Program-made: the position numbers and the translations under genes
In this document: positions 1,874 to 21,556 of the stretch, one piece after another
Layout: every line of letters begins with the position of its first letter
Numbering within the stretch: the stretch's first letter is position 1
The notes under the pieces: generated by a model
Database searches by the model: none
Seen by the model: the letters and a program-made list of their open reading frames with translations, nothing else
Told to the model about the DNA's origin: nothing
NCBI GenBank assembly: GCA_016782405.1
Contig: JADHYO010000001.1
Location: forward strand, 1-47,478
DNA from: Candidatus Aenigmatarchaeota archaeon
Lineage (GTDB): Archaea; Aenigmatarchaeota; Aenigmatarchaeia; QMZP01
Direction of reading: 5' to 3'
Length of the DNA stretch: 47,478 nucleotides

Positions 1874-2176
1874 ATGCAAAAAATCTCTTGTCCCTATTGC
1901 AAGTCCAATAAAATGGTTTTCCGGGGATACCGCTACAATGAGAAGTCCAAGAAACGCCTGCGGCTCTGCAAATCCTGCGGGAGGAAGTTTACGCTCCGTA
2001 ACGTCTACTTCAGGATGCGTTTTTCCCCAGTAGAAATCAAGCGGGCAGTCTCTCTCTATAAAAAAGGATTTTCTCTAGCAGAAGCGAAGCTTCGCATGGA
2101 AAGAGAAGGAGTCAGGGTCTCTCGCTGGACAATCCTCAAATGGTACAAAAAATACACCAAACCCGAGGACCGCTAA
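1874..2176 (+). CDS. Small Zn-ribbon + HTH DNA-binding protein (IS1 InsA / transposase N-terminal-like architecture, no catalytic domain)
   Basis: 100 aa. CPYC..(22 aa)..CKSC zinc ribbon, then an HTH-like segment GFSLAEAKLRMEREGVRVSRWTILKWYKKY. Confidence 0.6.
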   Translation: MQKISCPYCKSNKMVFRGYRYNEKSKKRLRLCKSCGRKFTLRNVYFRMRFSPVEIKRAVSLYKKGFSLAEAKLRMEREGVRVSRWTILKWYKKYTKPEDR

Positions 2177-2215
2177 GTTGACAAAACAAAAACCCTCCGA
2201 AACCTGGCGATAAAC
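2170..2215 (+). repeat. Intergenic repeat family, copy 1 (overlaps the stop codon of 1874..2176)
   Basis: CCGCTAAGTTGACAAAACAAAAAC (2170-2193) matches the reverse complement of 18584-18607 at 23/24 nt. The core TAAGTTGACAAAACAAAAAC matches 7805-7823 at about 17/20 with one indel. Downstream CGAAACC is shared with copy 3. Confidence 0.7.
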
Positions 2216-3330
2216 AACTAAAACTCGGGCAATGTCCTTTTCCCCGCCCCCCAAAACACACAGCTTATTTGGCCATGTGCCTTGGGTTGTTGTCTACCCC
2301 TATAACCTAAAAACAAAAGTTCGTCGCATTCAACCATCGATTGCGGAGGGATATTTTTTGGAGCGTGGACTGGGCATGAGTGAAGAGTGATGTTTGGAAA
2401 ACTCTTTGTGAAAATGCATTTGCAGTCTACCCTCACAGAAGATAATCCTTTATTATCAATTTTACACGATCTGCCGGCCCGCACATCATTTGCAACAGAA
2501 AAAAAGGGGGAGAAAGAATCCAAATTCGAATAATAAACCGAAGCTTCATCCCCCTCCCCATCTATCAAGAACCTTCTACCTCTGTTGCGAACAAAAAACC
2601 TTTCCACCTCTTCCTTGTGTGTGGGGGGTTTTACCTCCTCGTTGTCTGTCGGCCCCTACTACTTACACCGACTCTGCGGTTGTGAAAACCACTACCATCA
2701 CTACGGCGAGAACGTCCTTTCTCCTCTTTCACCTCTGCCGTTGCTTCTCGTAGCTTTTTGTCGTCTTGCTGCGGTGGTGTGGTAGTTCTCACTCGTCGCT
2801 TCCCCATATGGGAACCCCCTATCCGATCCTCCCTTGGAAAAAATAGCCATGAGCAGTCGGGAGGACAAAACTGCCTAGGCTTAGAATAGCAACCCCTCTC
2901 CACTGAAGGGGTGCATAATATAATGCGATGTATAAAAACGGTGGGGAAGGTGTCTAATGATTAAAGCGGTTAAGTGTGTCGCAGCCAGCATGGCTGCTAG
3001 GTGGGGTATGTATAGGTGGGAAAGACACCTCCCCAACCAAATCTTGAATTCACGTTTCTAAGAAGTTCACTAGCCCCGCGCGCGGCGTTGCATACTATGA
3101 TGCACCGGGAGGGGTGGGTTGTTAGGAATCCCTGGCCGCCGCGCGCACTGTCAGACAGAATGATCGGAATGTAGTTGGTTGGGGAGACACTGTTGAATGT
3201 ACTCGAATAACTATTCCAATCAATACAGTCTTCCACCCCCCGCAGTCTCTTCCCACCTATTGTCGACTGCGATTCCACCCCACACCACCCGAGGCGAAAA
3301 GGGCATTGGTGAAAAAACTAAAACAACATC

Positions 3331-3420
3331 CTGACCCCGAGAGCAGGCCGAAAGCTTCTAAGCTCCGGGTGGAACCTGCTCACCTACAAATCAGCCTTGA
3401 AAGATTTGTAGTGGGGTCAG
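3331..3420 (+). ncRNA. Three-helix RNA module, copy R1
   Basis: P1 CTGACCCC/GGGGTCAG (3331-3338/3413-3420), P2 GAGCAGG/CCTGCTC (3341-3347/3375-3381), P3 CTACAAATC/GATTTGTAG (3384-3392/3403-3411). Paralog of 3660-3750. Confidence 0.5.
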
Positions 3421-3659
3421 GGCTCTGCCCAGTGACAGTTAAAAAATTAATTCAGCTCCAACCGCAAGGCGCGCAGAGAATGATTGCTCGCTGGAAATGG
3501 CTGGGTATTTCCAACTAGGATGAGGCCAGGTCCAGTCAAACCTGCGCGCCTTTCGCTCATGTGCCGGTGCCATATAGAGAGGTTGTAGCCCGAGAGAAAT
3601 TACCGGCACATCTTCAGCCTTCAACAAGGAAGCGCTCTTACGAGCGTTGCGTTGGGCCT

Positions 3660-3750
3660 CTGACTCCAAGAGCAGGCCGAAAGCTTCTAATCTCTCGGAT
3701 GTGTCCTGCTCACCTGCAAGCCGAGTTCGAAAAACTTGCAGTGGGGTCAC
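3660..3750 (+). ncRNA. Three-helix RNA module, copy R2
   Basis: Same architecture as R1. P1 GACTCC/GGGGTC has a U.G pair only on the + strand. P2 is identical (3670-3676/3705-3711). P3 is rebuilt with different sequence, CTGCAAG/CTTGCAG. The 21-nt block GAGCAGGCCGAAAGCTTCTAA is identical to R1. Confidence 0.5.
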
Positions 3751-3908
3751 AGACAGATGATGGTGGGTGATTGGCAGTGTGATTATCACCCGATCGTCAG
3801 AGTGTTCCAAAAGTCGGAGGGTTCCAGTGTGTATTCAAAAAGCCCCGGGTGGGGATGCGAATAGCTTGATCGGTGTCCAGACCATGTCAAGCGACTCGGG
3901 GCTGGGTT

Positions 3909-4236
3909 AAAATCAAACGATGGGGCGGGCAAAACAGTAACACAATTTTACCTCGACAGTGGTCACTCTCGTAGGTTATAATTGATTCATCATGCCCGCC
4001 CCGCAAAAATCAATGGGTGGCGGGTAAAGTAAAACCTCTCATTCAGGCTACGGTCAAATAGCCACATATCATTTGTTCTGGTGATGCAATACCCGCCACG
4101 CAAAATTCAACTGGGTAAGCGCTTCCATGGTAGGATCTAGTAGATAGACAAGACAACATCAGGAAGGCACTTACCCAGAAAAGACAATCAAGTCACCTGA
4201 TTCCTTGAGGAAAGTCTTTGAAGCTTTCCTGAGGAA
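3909..4236. repeat. Tandem array of 3-4 long hairpins separated by A-rich spacers (period about 90-96 nt)
   Basis: H1 3922-4002 (GGGGCGGGCA/TGCCCGCCCC), H2 4017-4099 (GTGGCGGGTA/TACCCGCCAC), H3 4111-4178 (CTGGGTAAG/CTTACCCAG), weaker H4 4201-4236. Spacers are AAAATCAAAC, AAAAATCAAT, AAAATTCAA and AAAAGACAATCAAG. Confidence 0.6.
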
Positions 4237-4321
4237 GAAACCATCTGCTAACAAAAAGTTTGGTTCCCTGTGGGCATTCCGAAGGAATGTCGTGCAAATG
4301 GTTTGTGAAATTGATGAAACA

Positions 4322-6316
4322 TTACTTGAAGTCAACCCGCTCAAAGTCTGCTTTCTTTGCGAACTTTTCTGGGCTGGCTATATAGACGGTTAGGGGACCT
4401 TGTTTGTATGAAAGCCTAGCGGCTTCCTGCAGAAGGACGTTCCTCACACCCTCTGTCGCGCATATGAAGTATGGGGTTTCCCTCAAACCCTCTTCTATTT
4501 TTTTTCGGTTTGTTGTGTTTTCGATGATTACAGTAAGCTTTTTATTGTTCTGCTTATATATAAGCCTTTTTCCCTCTTGATCAAACTCCCAGCCCACCCC
4601 AGTGAGGTTAGAAACAATCTCTGTTATGTCCTTGTTTGATGATGTTTCCTTCCTGGTGAAATTCTCATCAAACACCTGATCCCCATTATCTGTGAGGAAA
4701 TAGAAGTGCAGTACATTCCTTCCAGTCTTCCCGCGCTTCATACCGACCAGGCCTTGGTCAGCCAGTTTTTTAACATGCCGCTCGAATGTTTTGCCTGACA
4801 TCTTTGTTCTGGAATAAATCCTTGAAGCAAAGCTACCTTTCCCTGATCCAATTGCCTCGATAATCTTCATCCCTTGCTCACTGATTTCCTCCTGAACATG
4901 CTCCTCTGCTACTGATTCTTTCTTGCCTGAGACCTTTTCCACAATCCGGTTGCCCATGAACTTGCTGATTTCCTCATCTGTAACGATTCCCTTTTCCATT
5001 GGGAACTTTGGGAACTCAATAAGGAATGGGCTCTGGAGCGACATCCTGCAAAGTATGAAACCGTGCCCAATAGGTAGTTGCCTGAGGTAAGGGGTTTCCT
5101 CCTCTGAGAGGCCAAGCATGTTGCTGGCGTCCTGGACATCTGAGGATTGCTTTGTGTCCAGTCCAAGGTTCATGTATATATGGGTTGATGTGTTTCCCAG
5201 GGCTGGGTAAGAAACCAATGAGGGGTGCTGGTCCAGATAGATCATGCCAAGCCCAAGCTCCCTAACCTCACGGAATATCAGCTCCATCACAGTTTCAGAT
5301 CCCATTTTCTTTGCCTTATCGCGGTTGAGGACGTGATGCGCTTCTTCCAGGAAAACCACACCTGCGAGCTCTTCCTTTTTCCAGTTAACAAGCAGCCAGT
5401 CCCTTATCCACTGGAGGATGATTTCTATGAAAAAAGACTTGTCATTTGTGTCAAGTGCGTCCAGCTCCAGGATGGTTATTTTTCCTGGCCTGAAAAAATC
5501 TGATGGAAGGATACCATCCTTTACCTTAAAGACCTCTCCCACCTCTTTGAAACAGAGGCTCTCTAAAGGTCGCTCGGCAGTAGCGAGCCAGTTCCGCTCC
5601 CTTGTCGGGAGGTTTGCAGAACCATACTCGTTCAGCCACTCCTTGAGATCTTGGAGGGTGGGATTCTCATGTGACATATAAACATTGTCCATTGACTTCA
5701 AAATTATATGACGGCCACCGCCAAGCAACCAGTAGGCATGGTCAAAGATTGAAGCAAACTCCTTAATCCACTGTGACAATTGGATCCCTGGTGGGGGCTT
5801 CAATGGGTTGAATTTGAACGGGGAAACGTTTCTGCCTATGGTGAAGATTTCTATCCTGTCTCTTAACGGGGTGGAGATAAGGTCTTTATAATTTCTTTTG
5901 GAGAAGTCAAAAATAATTACAGGGATTCCCTGGTCTGACAGCTTCTCTATCAATGAATAAGCAAGGTTGGTTTTCCCATACCCTGAGGAGCCAAAAATCC
6001 CCATGTGTGAGAGGAACGTCTTCTTGTTCAAATAGAAGGGATGCATTCTCTTCCTTCCGTACAATGCCTTCCCAATCTCAACATCCCCTGGTTTTGGTGT
6101 TATTGCCGCCGGGGGCTCCCTCAAGGCTGCATCCCGCAAATCCGGGTCAGAGAAGACAGCTGCCTTGATAACATCAACCAGCTCAAAAATCCTTTTCTTA
6201 GTATCCTCATCAGCCAGGAGGTATGCTCTTCCCAGACGCTGTGCGTTTATTCTTCCTAGAACAGGAACCAGCCTCTTAATCTCCTCGGACACCAGCTTCT
6301 CCTGTGTGTCCATCAT
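4322..6316 (-). CDS. HerA/FtsK-superfamily (DUF87-like) P-loop ATPase fused to a C-terminal winged-helix domain plus an uncharacterised tail domain
   Basis: Walker A GIFGSSGYGKTNLA; Walker B-like VVFLEEAHHVL. C-terminal wHTH-like segment FASRIYSRTKMSGKTFERHVKKLADQGLVGMKRGKTGRNV. Start moved to the ATG at 6316: ATGA overlap with the upstream stop, and GGAGG lies 4-5 nt upstream. The listed 6427 start would overlap the upstream gene by 115 nt. Confidence 0.75.
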   Translation of the reverse strand: MMDTQEKLVSEEIKRLVPVLGRINAQRLGRAYLLADEDTKKRIFELVDVIKAAVFSDPDLRDAALREPPAAITPKPGDVEIGKALYGRKRMHPFYLNKKTFLSHMGIFGSSGYGKTNLAYSLIEKLSDQGIPVIIFDFSKRNYKDLISTPLRDRIEIFTIGRNVSPFKFNPLKPPPGIQLSQWIKEFASIFDHAYWLLGGGRHIILKSMDNVYMSHENPTLQDLKEWLNEYGSANLPTRERNWLATAERPLESLCFKEVGEVFKVKDGILPSDFFRPGKITILELDALDTNDKSFFIEIILQWIRDWLLVNWKKEELAGVVFLEEAHHVLNRDKAKKMGSETVMELIFREVRELGLGMIYLDQHPSLVSYPALGNTSTHIYMNLGLDTKQSSDVQDASNMLGLSEEETPYLRQLPIGHGFILCRMSLQSPFLIEFPKFPMEKGIVTDEEISKFMGNRIVEKVSGKKESVAEEHVQEEISEQGMKIIEAIGSGKGSFASRIYSRTKMSGKTFERHVKKLADQGLVGMKRGKTGRNVLHFYFLTDNGDQVFDENFTRKETSSNKDITEIVSNLTGVGWEFDQEGKRLIYKQNNKKLTVIIENTTNRKKIEEGLRETPYFICATEGVRNVLLQEAARLSYKQGPLTVYIASPEKFAKKADFERVDFK

Positions 6317-7871: not shown

Positions 7872-10229
7872 TTACTCGCCCACGAACTCTCCGTTTTCAA
7901 CGCTCCAGTCGTTGCCGAAGAATCCAGCGAACTTGACATTGCCATTTTCTTTGTCCAGCATACTGATATCAGCTATCACCAGGTCCGGATACCCGATCCC
8001 TGCTGTGAATATTGGAAACATTCCAGCCATCCTCATTCCCTTGGCTGTTGTGCCGGAAACAACCCCCACAAGGGATGTATCGCATCCAGGTTTTGGCCTC
8101 ACTAACAAGACAGCCAAGTCACCCGTTAACTCTCGTTTGTTTCTAACCTTTACAGTGGAGCCCACCTGCACAGGGCTTCCTCCAAGAAGCCCTTCCCAGG
8201 CAGAGTTGGTTCTGGAATTCCCGTAGAGGATGATGTTGCCATACCCTGGCTTGTACTCCTCGTCTGGGATGAGGGGGAAGTTTCCATTCCCATGGTAGAA
8301 GAAGGTTTCCTGGTGGAATCTGGCAGCTTCGAAGTTTGCCTTGCTCTCCTCATCAGAACCCTGAGTCCCATACACAAGGACAGCCTCGTTGGTAAATGCC
8401 TCCTTGAATGGGCCTGTCCGGAGTGATGATTTCTCAGACTGGGGCGGTCTCCCGGGTGACCATTTTCCACCCTTTTTGCGGAACCATGCTTTGCCAGACA
8501 CCTCAAAGGATTGTTTGTCCAGTCGGACAGTCCCGATGGCATCTACCCAGAGGGCTTGGACATTAGTTGTCGTGACCCGTGCACTGTCCCCGTCCTTGGA
8601 GGCTGTTACCTTGCTCCTTTTATGGAACTTTTTCTGCTGTTCAATCCCAACCCAGTGACACTGGGAGGAAACCCCAGGGTTTGCTGTGGTGAAGCTGATC
8701 TTCTCACCGGTTCCAATTTGTTGCTTCCTGAGGAACTTGAACATCTGTGGCCAGTTAACACATGCCATGAAAGGAATGCCATCCCTTTTCCACCGGTGGG
8801 ATGCGCCTTTCTCTTCGTGGTATTTGAGGTTAGGGTGACCCTTCAGGAGTTTCACCGCCCTCCTTGACCAGTGCACACGGACTGTTCTGTCAAGTTGCCC
8901 GTGGAGAACGTAGACAGGTGTTTTTGAGAGGTTCCCCATCCACAGCTGTTTTATCCTGCTTTGAGAGCAAGACCTCCAGAGGATTTCTCCTGTGCGGGAG
9001 GATCGAAAATTCAGTTTCGGTTCTTCAAGGTCCCAAATGGAGAGGTACCCACCCGAGGGTCCGCCCGCAGCAAACATTCCAGGATACCATGCCATGAATG
9101 CCCAGGCCCCGTGGCCGCCCATACCAAGTCCGCAGATATAAATCTTTTTCGGGTCATGGGGGAGCTGCCTCTTGGCATCTTCCAGGGCCTCGAGGACATC
9201 CAGTCGTCCCCAGTCCTCATAACTGAAACCAATGGGCCTCCTATTCATGGGTGCCACAATGTGACACCATTTCTTTCTGGGAAGCATGTCGCAGATGTCC
9301 TTTGTACCCCGGCCAGAATCGTGACATGCAACCAGGATTCCTGCCCCCTCCGGGTTCTTGGCTGGGGTGATCCTGTAACTTTGGATACTCCCATCCACTG
9401 AGCTTCTGAAGGTCTTCCTTATCACAACCCTCTTTGCTTTGGGGTTCACCACCTCCAGGGGAACCTCAAGTGAATCCAGCACCTCCTCACTGTTTTTTAA
9501 TTCCAGGTGAAGTGTTGCCTTATTCGAGGCCGGGGCCTTGATCCGGAAGGATGCCCTGGAAATGGAATGCTCGTGGATTGGGTGGATGCTGGTCTCCACC
9601 TCCCTGTCACCAACACGGGCAAGAATCTTCAATCCAGTGAGCCTATCACCAGCATTAATGATATCAACCCCGCCCCAGCCACTATATTTGCGGCCAGATA
9701 TGAGGGATGGTAGGGTTGGTTCCCACTTGGATTTGTTCACGAAGCTGAGGGACACTTCCTTCTCCACGGGCTTCAACGTTGCTTTGAACCCATTCCCTTT
9801 TCGCACAAGGAAAAGGAGGTGGTTCGTTCCCTCCTTGAGCTTTACAGGGATTGGTACTCTCCCCTCATCAGAGACACCGTAATGCGGGTTTCCCATCCTG
9901 GGCGTCCCGTTCACAAACACATGGGAGTGGCCGCCGGCCTCCAGTATCATCACCTTTTCCTGGTCAGAGTCAACTTCGAAGTGGAGGTAGCAGTCTACTC
10001 TGAACTTTTCCCCCTTCCTGATTTCTATAGGCCCCCATTCTGCACTGCCTATATCAAGCAATTTCTCATCCTTAAACAGTTTACCCTGAAGGAGACTGTG
10101 TTCCACAAGGTCCATCCGAATCTGGTTGAGGTCCTTGTAAACTCCTGCAATCGCTTCCCCTTCTACTAGGGGAATGTCTTGGCTGCTGGAAACGCCACAT
10201 AGCAGCGCCAATAAAACAATGATTCCCAT
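7872..10229 (-). CDS. Secreted multidomain protein with an alpha/beta-hydrolase (esterase/peptidase S9-like) domain; nucleophile Ser appears replaced by Gly
   Basis: Signal-like N-terminus MGIIVLLALLCGVSSSQ. Hydrolase-like region KKIYICGLGMGGHGAWAFMAWYPGMFAAGG ... PVYVLHGQLDRTV ... GASHRW. Confidence 0.65.
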   Translation of the reverse strand: MGIIVLLALLCGVSSSQDIPLVEGEAIAGVYKDLNQIRMDLVEHSLLQGKLFKDEKLLDIGSAEWGPIEIRKGEKFRVDCYLHFEVDSDQEKVMILEAGGHSHVFVNGTPRMGNPHYGVSDEGRVPIPVKLKEGTNHLLFLVRKGNGFKATLKPVEKEVSLSFVNKSKWEPTLPSLISGRKYSGWGGVDIINAGDRLTGLKILARVGDREVETSIHPIHEHSISRASFRIKAPASNKATLHLELKNSEEVLDSLEVPLEVVNPKAKRVVIRKTFRSSVDGSIQSYRITPAKNPEGAGILVACHDSGRGTKDICDMLPRKKWCHIVAPMNRRPIGFSYEDWGRLDVLEALEDAKRQLPHDPKKIYICGLGMGGHGAWAFMAWYPGMFAAGGPSGGYLSIWDLEEPKLNFRSSRTGEILWRSCSQSRIKQLWMGNLSKTPVYVLHGQLDRTVRVHWSRRAVKLLKGHPNLKYHEEKGASHRWKRDGIPFMACVNWPQMFKFLRKQQIGTGEKISFTTANPGVSSQCHWVGIEQQKKFHKRSKVTASKDGDSARVTTTNVQALWVDAIGTVRLDKQSFEVSGKAWFRKKGGKWSPGRPPQSEKSSLRTGPFKEAFTNEAVLVYGTQGSDEESKANFEAARFHQETFFYHGNGNFPLIPDEEYKPGYGNIILYGNSRTNSAWEGLLGGSPVQVGSTVKVRNKRELTGDLAVLLVRPKPGCDTSLVGVVSGTTAKGMRMAGMFPIFTAGIGYPDLVIADISMLDKENGNVKFAGFFGNDWSVENGEFVGE

Positions 10230-10518
10230 TGGGGATTCCTTTCACTGTGAATCATTATCCAAGAAAGTAATAACTAATCAAAACTCCTACCCCAGTCTTC
10301 AGCCAATTACCAAAGTCTAGGTTTTACGCACGAAATTTATTGAGGGATATGAGCATGATATCGGTTATTTGGTGAAAAACTTTAAAGGTTTGGCATTATC
10401 CTCAGTGTTCCATGGGAAAAATGGCTGTTAGCAGTGCAATTGCTGCTGAAAATGCAGAATCGCTGGAAGTTTTATATTTCCAAACACTAAGAATTTTAGA
10501 TAGGATTTTTGTGATTAT

Positions 10519-11148
10519 ATGGCGTTCAAGGGTCTAAAGAAATTACTGGACAGGATTTCATCGCTTTTCAAGAAGAAGGGCGAGTTGAAGATTGGGCTTT
10601 ACGGGCCAGTGAACTCTGGAAAGACCACCCTAGCGAACAAGATATGCAAGGACTGGCTTGGGGAGGACATGGGAAAAGCTTCCATAGTTCCACATGAAAC
10701 AAGGGAAATTCAAACAAAGGAGAATGTTAAGATAGAACGTGACGGCAAATCCCTAACGTTCAACCTGGTGGACACCCCTGGGATTGCAACAAGGATTGAT
10801 TTTGAGGATTTTGTAAAGTTCGGGATGGGGAAGAAGAAAGCCAAATCCCGAGCTAAAGAGGCCACCAAAGGCGTTATTGAATCAATCAAGTGGTTGGACA
10901 ACATGGACATGGTGTTGGTAGTGGTTGACTCAACAAGAGACCCGCTCACCCAGGTGAACCTTACAATCCTTGGAAACCTTGATGCTAGAGGGGTTCCTTT
11001 TCTGATTGTGGCAAACAAGGCAGATCTCAAGCAGTCCCAGCTGAAGCGTGTGGAAGAAGCATTCCAGAATTATAGGACAGTTGGGATTTCAGCGAGGACA
11101 GGTCACCGGCTTGAGAATCTATATGACGCAGTACTGGAGACAGTATGA
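10519..11148 (+). CDS. Small GTP-binding protein (Era/EngB-like TRAFAC GTPase)
   Basis: G1 GPVNSGKTT, G3 DTPG, G4 NKAD. Confidence 0.8.
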   Translation: MAFKGLKKLLDRISSLFKKKGELKIGLYGPVNSGKTTLANKICKDWLGEDMGKASIVPHETREIQTKENVKIERDGKSLTFNLVDTPGIATRIDFEDFVKFGMGKKKAKSRAKEATKGVIESIKWLDNMDMVLVVVDSTRDPLTQVNLTILGNLDARGVPFLIVANKADLKQSQLKRVEEAFQNYRTVGISARTGHRLENLYDAVLETV

Positions 11149-15344: not shown

Positions 15345-15698
15345 ATGGAAGAGGTTGCCAAATGGGTTGAAAAGGCAGAGCATGACCTAAATGCTGCTGA
15401 AGTTAACCTAAAAGAAGGTATATATGATGTATCTGCATTCTTTTCACAACAGGCTGCAGAAAAGTCGTTGAAGGCATTATATATATCGAAATATAAAGAA
15501 TTGTGGAAGATTCATGACCTATACGAATTGGCAATTAAGGTTGAAGCTCCAAAAACCATTTCTGACATTTGTGAGAAGTTGACACAGCATTATATAGCCA
15601 CAATGTATCCGAACGATGAAGAATATTCCAAGGAAGATGCAGAGGAGGCGGTTGAACAGGCAAAGAAGGTGATGAAATGGGTAAAAGAGAAATTATAG
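15345..15698 (+). CDS. HEPN-domain protein (partner of the adjacent minimal nucleotidyltransferase)
   Basis: WVEKAEHDLNAAE..FFSQQAAEKSLKAL..HYIATMYP pattern of classical HEPN (COG2250-like) proteins. Overlaps the next gene by 22 nt. Confidence 0.7.
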   Translation: MEEVAKWVEKAEHDLNAAEVNLKEGIYDVSAFFSQQAAEKSLKALYISKYKELWKIHDLYELAIKVEAPKTISDICEKLTQHYIATMYPNDEEYSKEDAEEAVEQAKKVMKWVKEKL

Positions 15699-15994
15699 AA
15701 AATGTGAAGGAGTTCAAAAAGTCTGCTGAGAAGAAGTTTGCATTAGAAAGGGTTTTCATATTTGGTTCTGCAGCCAGGGGAAAAATGAAGAAAGATAGTG
15801 ATGTTGACCTGCTTCTTGTCAGTAATAAGTTTAAAGGTAAAAAATTCTTTAAGAGGGCCATAGGTCTTAGGGCTCACTGGAAGCTTGATTGTCCTGTTGA
15901 TTTTTTGTGCTACACTCCAAAGGAGTTTGATAAATTAAGGAAAATGGTCACCATAGTAAGGGAAGCTGTCAAGGAAGGAATTGAAATAAATTAG
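15677..15994 (+). CDS. Minimal nucleotidyltransferase (MNT)
   Basis: FGSAARGKMKKDSDVDLLLV (GS..x9-11..DxD pol-beta NTase motif). Confidence 0.8.
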   Translation: MGKREIIENVKEFKKSAEKKFALERVFIFGSAARGKMKKDSDVDLLLVSNKFKGKKFFKRAIGLRAHWKLDCPVDFLCYTPKEFDKLRKMVTIVREAVKEGIEIN

Positions 15995-16013
15995 ACCGAA
16001 CATCAACCTATTG

Positions 16014-21433: not shown

Positions 21434-21482
21434 ATTATATAATAAACATAATAGTATATAAATGTTATATATAATGTATAAG

Positions 21483-21556
21483 AGCCTCTGAAGGGAATCG
21501 AACCCCTAACCTTTCGTTTACGAAACGAATGCTCTACCAGATTGAGCTACAGAGGC
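21483..21556 (-). tRNA. tRNA-Thr(CGU), intronless
   Basis: Minus-strand reading: GCCTCTG TA GCTC AATCTGGTA GAGC A TTCGT TTCGTAA ACGAA AGGTT AGGGG TTCGATT CCCTT CAGAGGC T (74 nt). Confidence 0.85.

Follow-up and report, generated by a model that had tools for sequence, protein, structure and literature searches.

Two paralogous Y-shaped modules in a gene-free, helix-dense stretch of an Aenigmatarchaeota genome as candidate structured RNA domains

The DNA analyzed here is a 47,478-nt stretch of an Aenigmatarchaeota genome, referred to as the window. Two paralogous modules, R1 and R2, lie within a 2,145-nt gene-free gap of this window, with convergent genes on either side. The left neighbor (1874-2176, plus strand) encodes a Zn-ribbon protein of 100 amino acids with a possible HTH domain, which is 82-84% identical in sister genera. 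The right neighbor (4322-6316, minus strand) encodes a HerA/DUF87 ATPase of 664 amino acids, whose best relatives, at 71-77% identity, come from Aenigmatarchaeota metagenome bins. Elsewhere in the window, a T2SSE/FlaI-type secretion ATPase ORF is split by an intein that carries a homing-endonuclease domain of the LAGLIDADG type (78-1829), HEPN and nucleotidyltransferase genes stand side by side as a typical toxin-antitoxin-like module (15345-15998; locus L176), and the sole tRNA is located at 21482-21556. Contigs identical to the window were found in run SRR12042682, part of a metagenome study of the Black Sea water column (PMC8067304). The public contigs overlapping or bordering the region (L005-L007 and L175) are 100% identical to it and are, therefore, uninformative on variation; the members of two further pairs of loci, L003/L004 and L001/L002, are likewise effectively identical to each other. 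One of these contigs, a 1,054-nt sequence from run ERR13325269 (L175), corresponds to window positions 3175-4228, wholly inside the gene-free stretch, and this run was not returned by look-ups of three other window genes.

Toward its HerA side, the gap is densely packed with predicted helices (Table 1). Folded in 150-nt windows, the gene-free stretch had mean z values of -1.5 (plus strand) and -2.0 (minus strand), compared to values between -0.4 and -0.5 in HerA coding sequence. Between approximately 2940 and 4200, closed domains follow one another as a string comprising a 5' domain, R1, a spacer domain of 238 nt, R2 and the hairpins U2-U4, with individual domains reaching z values of -3 to -6. 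To the left of this string are two TATA-like hexamers resembling the TTTAAATA-type boxes of the genome, which end 21-23 nt before leaderless ATGs. A 36-amino-acid ORF (2957-3067) begins 19 nt past the TATAAAAA box, close to the leaderless-gene spacing of the genome, and had no match among the fetched loci. Mutually exclusive pairings were also seen at 2940-3186, where CTCCCCAACC (3029-3038) can pair with either 2940-2955 (14/16) or 3175-3186 (12/12); these alternatives enclose a GC-rich helix at 3066-3150.

Table 1 Features of the gene-free gap, in window coordinates.
Feature	Position	Strand	Description
TATA-like hexamers TAATATAA, TATAAAAA	2916-2938	direction unsettled	Candidate promoter; sole such boxes in the 2.1 kb gap
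Gene-free helix-dense stretch	2940-4320	.	GC 0.51 versus 0.46 in the window; no genes on contig L007, no Rfam family
R1	3331-3421	+ (strand of the preliminary description, unsettled)	Y-shaped module, 91 nt; covariance-model score 111.5 bits
R1 helices	P1 3332-3339/3412-3419; P2 3341-3347/3375-3381, extension 3348-3350/3366-3368; P3 3384-3392/3403-3411		
Identical 21-nt block, copy 1	3341-3361	+	5' strand of P2 and first 11 nt of loop L2; contains the palindrome AAGCTT
Spacer domain	3422-3659	+	Closed multi-branch fold, 238 nt; -84.0 kcal/mol, z about -3.0
R2	3660-3750	+ (strand of the preliminary description, unsettled)	Y-shaped paralogous module, 91 nt; covariance-model score 115.6 bits
R2 helices	P1 3661-3668/3742-3749; P2 3670-3676/3705-3711, extension 3677-3679/3696-3698; P3 3714-3720/3735-3741		
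Identical 21-nt block, copy 2	3670-3690	+	Second occurrence of the 21-mer
Hairpin units U2-U4	3909-4195 (U2 3922-4004, U3 4014-4102, U4 4111-4178)	.	97-nt period

R1 and R2 are 79% identical (blastn) in an alignment that needs one 1-nt indel, and they are arranged in direct orientation at a start-to-start distance of 329-330 nt. Folded separately, both copies form a Y-shaped three-way junction of common layout (R1, -41.5 kcal/mol, z -4.16; R2, -33.3 kcal/mol, z -3.07), and for neither was an equally good fold found among 200 shuffles. Helix P1 measures 8-9 bp in the modules. P2 consists of 7 bp, a 6-nt bulge on the 3' side, 3-4 further bp and a loop of 13-15 nt, while P3 spans 7-9 bp and is capped by a loop of 10-14 nt. 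The strands that join the helices, (G/A)A, AC and U, are just 1-2 nt long, and the internal loop of P2 is not the same in the two copies. Identical between R1 and R2 are the 21-mer GAGCAGGCCGAAAGCTTCTAA, which occurs exactly twice in the window with three mismatches permitted (0 expected by chance), and CCTGCTCACCT. A preliminary description of this DNA, made from the sequence alone, had pointed out the shared architecture and the repeated 21-nt block, and both were borne out, with correct coordinates and sequences. Enrichment of the AAGCTT palindrome contained in the block was ruled out, as the window holds 21 copies at 21 expected. Further along the gap, 12 of the 13 nucleotides of CTTTGAAGCTTTC (4216-4228) are complementary to GAAAGCTTCTAAG of the conserved L2 loop in R1 and R2; read on the minus strand, this site is a near-copy of the loop and lies ~100 nt beyond the HerA stop codon.

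The substitutions that separate the two copies respect this fold. All 25 shared pairs of the common structure are standard in R1 and R2 alike, and the six differences that fall within them keep pairing at every one. In P3, double changes turn A-U into G-C at two pairs (columns 59-82 and 63-78). In P1, two pairs show one-sided changes through wobble: C-G to U-G, which had already been proposed in the preliminary description and was found in the pair table, and G-U to A-U. The additional proposal that P3 had been fully rebuilt was overstated, with five of its seven shared pairs unchanged and the R1 version merely 2 bp longer. Differences were found at 6 of 50 stem positions versus 13 of 39 unpaired ones (Fisher p = 0.019). 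The chance that six random stem changes leave all pairs standard is 0.037 for transitions and 0.03% for substitutions in general. A covariation shuffle control, in which 122 of 500 shuffles reached the observed value, is uninformative with two sequences only. Taken from this one pair of sequences, the evidence that the R1/R2 fold is under constraint is real yet modest. The constraint differs between helices: P3 is held as a helix only, while P2 together with the initial 11 loop nucleotides (GAAAGCUUCUAA) is held in sequence, which suggests a repeated recognition surface.

We examined the coding potential of both strands. No frame is open and shared across both whole modules in either direction, and the ORF covering R2 on the minus strand had no homologs, in agreement with the earlier statement that conservation does not operate at the peptide level. 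That statement had been based on two plus-strand ORFs, 3306-3518 and 3561-3770, said to read the identical 21-nt block in different frames. This is correct for that 5' block, which they read at offsets of 2 and 1, respectively, but from CCTGCTCACCT onward the two are in frame with each other and have the residues PAHLQ...VGS in common. The common frame and residues of these 3' halves are what could be said for a reading in which the two ORFs, or the minus-strand ORF 3439-3810, encode paralogous small proteins. Yet the 5' halves are out of frame with each other, and the shared 3' halves contain one synonymous versus seven nonsynonymous codon differences, so even this stretch argues against a peptide. 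The minus-strand frame that is open through R2 hits a TGA in R1, and in a search of 1.84 billion representative proteins the corresponding ORF of 123 amino acids matched only itself. The gap (2177-4321) contains 45 open segments of at least 30 amino acids, and not one gave a translated match in any syntenic locus. ORFs of the gap had no Pfam or NCBIfam matches, and the identical public contig L007 carries no called genes across the helix-dense stretch. With a shared open frame, a synonymous excess and homologs all absent, the small-protein reading is close to refuted. Of the preliminary claim that conservation is at the RNA rather than the protein level, the exclusion of protein stands, and stems are steadier than loops; a choice of RNA over single-stranded DNA would be tentative.

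The spacer between the modules is a structured domain of its own. As the preliminary description had suggested, it is made of nested helices, which together form a closed multi-branch fold containing a helix at 3463-3476/3542-3555 and hairpins at 3561-3612 and 3633-3646, with sub-helices at z values of -3.4 and -4.5. The spacer is present once only; it has no similarity to its flanks, and a tandem duplication of the whole 330-nt unit was thereby ruled out. The recurrence of one motif in direct orientation at either end of such a unit raises the question of a twin processing or self-cleaving element, cut at the same site in both copies to release a structured RNA of 329-330 nt in the manner of a retrozyme or viroid. 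In favor of such an element, 63% of the bases are paired in a circular fold of the unit (-123.4 kcal/mol, z -5.5). Against this stand the very short junction strands and the differing P2 internal loops, so that a conserved catalytic core is not visible. Moreover, no ribozyme family was matched at E values up to 10, the intervening fold is branched rather than rod-like, and no reverse transcriptase or other mobility gene lies nearby. We, therefore, regard self-cleavage as highly improbable.

Downstream of R2, the hairpin units U2, U3 and U4 fold with z values of -5.3, -4.9 and -5.9, respectively. U2 and U3 constitute a second paralogous module pair with common 3' flanks, and their 10-bp terminal stem keeps pairing through two double changes, G-C to U-A and C-G to U-A. 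A AAAATCAA-like linker precedes each of U2, U3 and U4. On the minus strand of U2, AUGAUGA immediately follows the stem, and a weak match to snoZ266 was obtained at this unit (24 bits, E 0.2). The same units can also be read as palindromic boxes with a 97-bp period, and helices throughout the region are nearly all Watson-Crick, with both strands folding about equally well. These properties would suit structures acting as DNA, either as single-stranded hairpins or as protein-binding inverted repeats in replication, transposition or recombination. However, the region exceeds the genome in GC, an AT-rich unwinding element is missing, adjacent Rep, transposase or Orc1 genes are absent, and a three-way junction with loops of 10-15 nt is unlikely to form as a cruciform. 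A role at the DNA level, thus, seems improbable to us, and the folded molecule would more plausibly be RNA.

If transcribed, the modules could be read from either strand. The whole stretch (2940-4200) folds almost equally well in both directions (-468.6 versus -468.5 kcal/mol), and the wobble evidence is a tie with two sites each: the plus strand alone has two wobble pairs in P1, and two C.A mismatches in the P3 extension of R2 become G.U on the minus strand. On the plus strand, positions 2945-4345 contain one T4 run, no T5 run and 14 A4+ runs, while coding sense strands of the genome have 4.0 T4+ and 7.3 A4+ runs per kb. Unpaired positions on the plus strand are 42% A, as on sense strands. 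The A-runs of 2945-4345 are located mostly at domain boundaries. A minus-strand R2 would hold an internal U5, and a minus-strand transcript would meet 14 U4+ tracts. The promoter-like TATA boxes at 2916-2938, the sole ones in the gap, also speak for the plus strand. Together, these features favor the plus strand slightly over the minus strand.

Several observations would nevertheless suit an RNA on the minus strand downstream of HerA, in which each closed domain with its trailing U-tract would be a small RNA unit or part of a 3'-UTR or terminator array. The minus-strand z values are lower for R1 (-5.7), R2 (-3.7) and 7 of 10 domains, and each of the six lineages compared shows more structure on the HerA strand. 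U-tracts on this strand directly follow closed domains in a terminator-like manner: UGUUGUUUUAGUUUUUUC comes after R1, a GC hairpin and then a U-rich tail after R2, and a UUGAUUUU-like tract after each of U1-U4. Also on this strand, R1 is preceded at 17-23 nt by an A/T-rich box. On the other hand, the first T5 run is encountered ~65 nt past the HerA stop codon and is followed by 13 more U4+ tracts, which makes read-through to R2 and R1 doubtful. Further U4-U5 tracts occur inside R2 and U2/U3, R2 has no promoter-like box of its own, and P1 of R2 would contain an A.C mismatch. On balance, we consider a minus-strand origin of the modules unlikely.

To place the modules among known RNAs, we searched Rfam 15, a set of sequence collections and related loci. 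At gathering scores, the whole window gave tRNA-Thr only, and searches of 2200-4400 and 3315-3765 at E values up to 10 returned chance-level scores of 11-24 bits, compared to gathering scores of 40-85. The exact 21-mer was absent from the genome, viral and metagenome contig collections. The 16-mer core GGCCGAAAGCTTCTAA matched one viral and 85 metagenome stretches. All of these were screened (81 seeded loci) with a covariance model built from the two R1/R2 sequences, with unconvincing best scores of 15-18 bits. Two of the top matches, L093 and L114, resemble protein-coding sequence on the opposite strand when inspected by eye. Two more degenerate patterns found no matches in viral contigs. With filters off, the covariance model detected nothing but R1 and R2 in the window. 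It gave unconvincing scores on the eight closest syntenic loci (L001, L003, L004 and L170-L174; filters off for part of them) and on 76 Aenigmatarchaeota loci from GTDB species representatives; two weak matches in the L171 gap (13.7 and 10.2 bits) were rejected because they adopt a different fold when taken alone. Plasmid and phage collections contained no match to the modules, and a literature search on Aenigmarchaeota non-coding RNA revealed nothing relevant. The expectation that the modules would define an RNA family with further homologs in archaeal genomes was, thus, disappointed among the syntenic and GTDB loci, and as far as search tools reach, R1/R2 is an orphan element.

The relatives of the locus show how fast its content changes. 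Zn-ribbon/HerA synteny is kept, and the intervening gap measures 0 kb (L174), 0.26 kb (L008), 0.7-1.0 kb (L016 and L026), 1.4 kb (L171), 1.7 kb (L003), 1.9 kb (L009) or 2.5-2.6 kb (L001 and L010). Using blastn and tblastx, we found no nucleotide or translated similarity between the window gap and those of relatives, nor among the latter. HerA relatives are mutually 70-78% identical and, hence, offer no close genome for comparison. A gap that is absent or tiny in L174 and L008 and unalignable between genera suggests that whatever function it has can be dispensed with or soon replaced. Structure is nonetheless found in the unrelated gaps of L001, L003, L009, L010 and L171, with mean z values of -1.0 to -2.0 versus +0.2 to -0.6 in adjacent HerA coding sequence. 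Two of them contain duplicated modules unrelated in sequence to R1/R2: L009 (9096-9322) has its own pair of ~85-nt paralogs, in which CCGGGG/CCCCGG is replaced by CCGAGG/CCTCGG, and L003 (12305-12426) carries two tandem 61-nt hairpins with a compensatory change. Position rather than sequence, therefore, seems to be associated with structured, locally duplicating non-coding DNA. In locus L063 of another Aenigmatarchaeota genome, a 23S rRNA gene (8130-11086) lies directly downstream of HerA in convergent orientation, at the same position and orientation as the gene-free stretch of the window.

Such turnover could also mark an insertion site filled with non-functional debris, for example mobile-element remnants, where R1/R2 arose by a recent local duplication and the hairpins, inherited from the source element, have not yet decayed. 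The variable, unrelated gaps and the lack of homologs in the searched collections agree with this idea. Furthermore, P1 resembles a 9-bp terminal inverted repeat, and the N-terminus of the neighboring Zn-ribbon protein is similar to an IS1/IS1595 Zn-binding domain, with a score below the curated cut-off. Most of the gap is also bracketed by a collinear inverted pair at 2455-2494 and 4293-4315, ATCAATTT(T/C)ACA...CATTTGCA. The right arm of this pair ends 7 nt from the HerA stop codon; the pair is statistically marginal and has no target-site duplication. Decay without selection is, however, hard to reconcile with the substitutions: a loop divergence of ~33% predicts ~16 stem changes, mostly disruptive, against the six seen, all of which preserve pairing. 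Neither module copy is flanked by a target-site duplication, copies beyond R1 and R2 were not detected in the window, plasmid and phage records show no similarity, and the conservation of the Zn-ribbon gene across genera fits a host gene. The contrast between stems and loops and the missing target-site duplications weaken the debris reading, which we hold to be doubtful.

We tentatively favor, as quite possible although short of probable, a structured non-coding transcript specific to this lineage, of which R1 and R2 would be duplicated domains. Besides R1/R2 themselves, this reading draws on the U2/U3 pair with its two double changes, on the paralogous hairpin modules in the gaps of L009 and L003 and on the excess of structure over coding controls, seen in the window and in the gaps of five relatives. 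The lack of homologs in the searches and the gap being tiny or missing in some relatives speak against it. A local duplication would have produced R1 and R2 from a lineage-specific three-way-junction domain of 91 nt, and the helix-dense stretch of 1.3-1.4 kb would most likely be transcribed as non-coding RNA. The twin modules could then act as structural or binding platforms, in which P2 and its loop may offer a protein or RNA partner the same docking site twice. Alternatively, the self-complementary AAGCUU loops of R1 and R2 might contact each other and clamp the 238-nt domain between them. A bolder version, which we judge decidedly unlikely, would make the ~1.3-1.4 kb stretch a new large structured Aenigmatarchaeota RNA with domain duplication, whose place in sister genera is taken by unrelated sequence of equal structure, with R1/R2 as AAGCUU-pairing docking sites or as a self-processing motif that releases a 329-nt RNA.

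Genomes of DPANN archaea are small and tightly packed, and to our knowledge almost nothing is known about their non-coding RNAs. If the favored reading is correct, a gene-free stretch of >1 kb packed with domains that keep their fold through compensatory changes would offer this group one of its rare candidates for a structured RNA of a single lineage. The sister genera, with unrelated yet helix-dense sequence at the syntenic position, would in that case exemplify RNA structure maintained despite complete sequence turnover. Confirmation of the bolder version, with a large and quickly replaced RNA locus or a self-processing motif of a new type, would be of high interest. As an orphan represented by two sequences, the R1/R2 element is valuable as a concrete, cheaply testable target rather than as an established class.

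We compared the modules to known systems that they resemble in part. Like hammerhead and other small self-cleaving ribozymes in the twin arrangement of retrozymes, R1 and R2 are three-helix junctions in the ~50-90 nt size range that flank a few hundred paired nucleotides as two direct copies. They differ from hammerheads in their junction strands, where the CUGANGA/GAAA core is absent, and in matching no Rfam ribozyme model, and they differ from the rod-like, mobile or multicopy retrozymes in forming a branched unit present in two copies. Tandem riboswitch aptamers, such as those for glycine or the tandem purine and TPP three-way junctions, likewise consist of paralogous junction domains on one strand, whose stems are conserved and whose loops are partly so. 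These aptamers are adjacent, whereas R1 and R2 are 238 nt apart, with no expression platform, no credible downstream ORF to be regulated from a 5' leader on either strand of the gap and no riboswitch family match. MITEs share with the modules a size of ~90 bp, the presence of more than one copy and a closing inverted repeat of 9 bp, here formed by P1. In contrast to dispersed MITEs, the modules have no target-site duplication, occur as two adjacent copies in 47 kb and not in 160 other loci and show compensatory changes in internal helices. A tRNA-like identity is not indicated by ARAGORN or Rfam, the modules having three arms rather than a cloverleaf and no closed 7-nt T-loop. Archaeal C/D box sRNAs also differ, as CUGA occurs only within P1, RUGAUGA is absent from R1/R2, and sno-type matches were at chance level. 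On a larger scale, the stretch is reminiscent of GOLLD, ROOL, HEARO and OLE in being gene-free, at least 1 kb long, GC-richer than its surroundings and composed of many closed helical domains. Those RNAs are Rfam families found across many genomes, while the present stretch has no match, and syntenic regions of relatives are unrelated. The CsrB/RsmZ-type sponges, OmrA/B and Qrr are, we assume, comparable in another respect, as locally duplicated stem-loops that present the same loop and keep their fold through sequence turnover; we take R1/R2 to differ from them in being archaeal, in numbering only two copies, in being Y-shaped rather than simple hairpins and in having no known partner protein. 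Judged by sequence and predicted fold, R1 and R2 appear to stand outside any known family and to be, in kind, candidate small structured RNA domains within a larger structured non-coding region.
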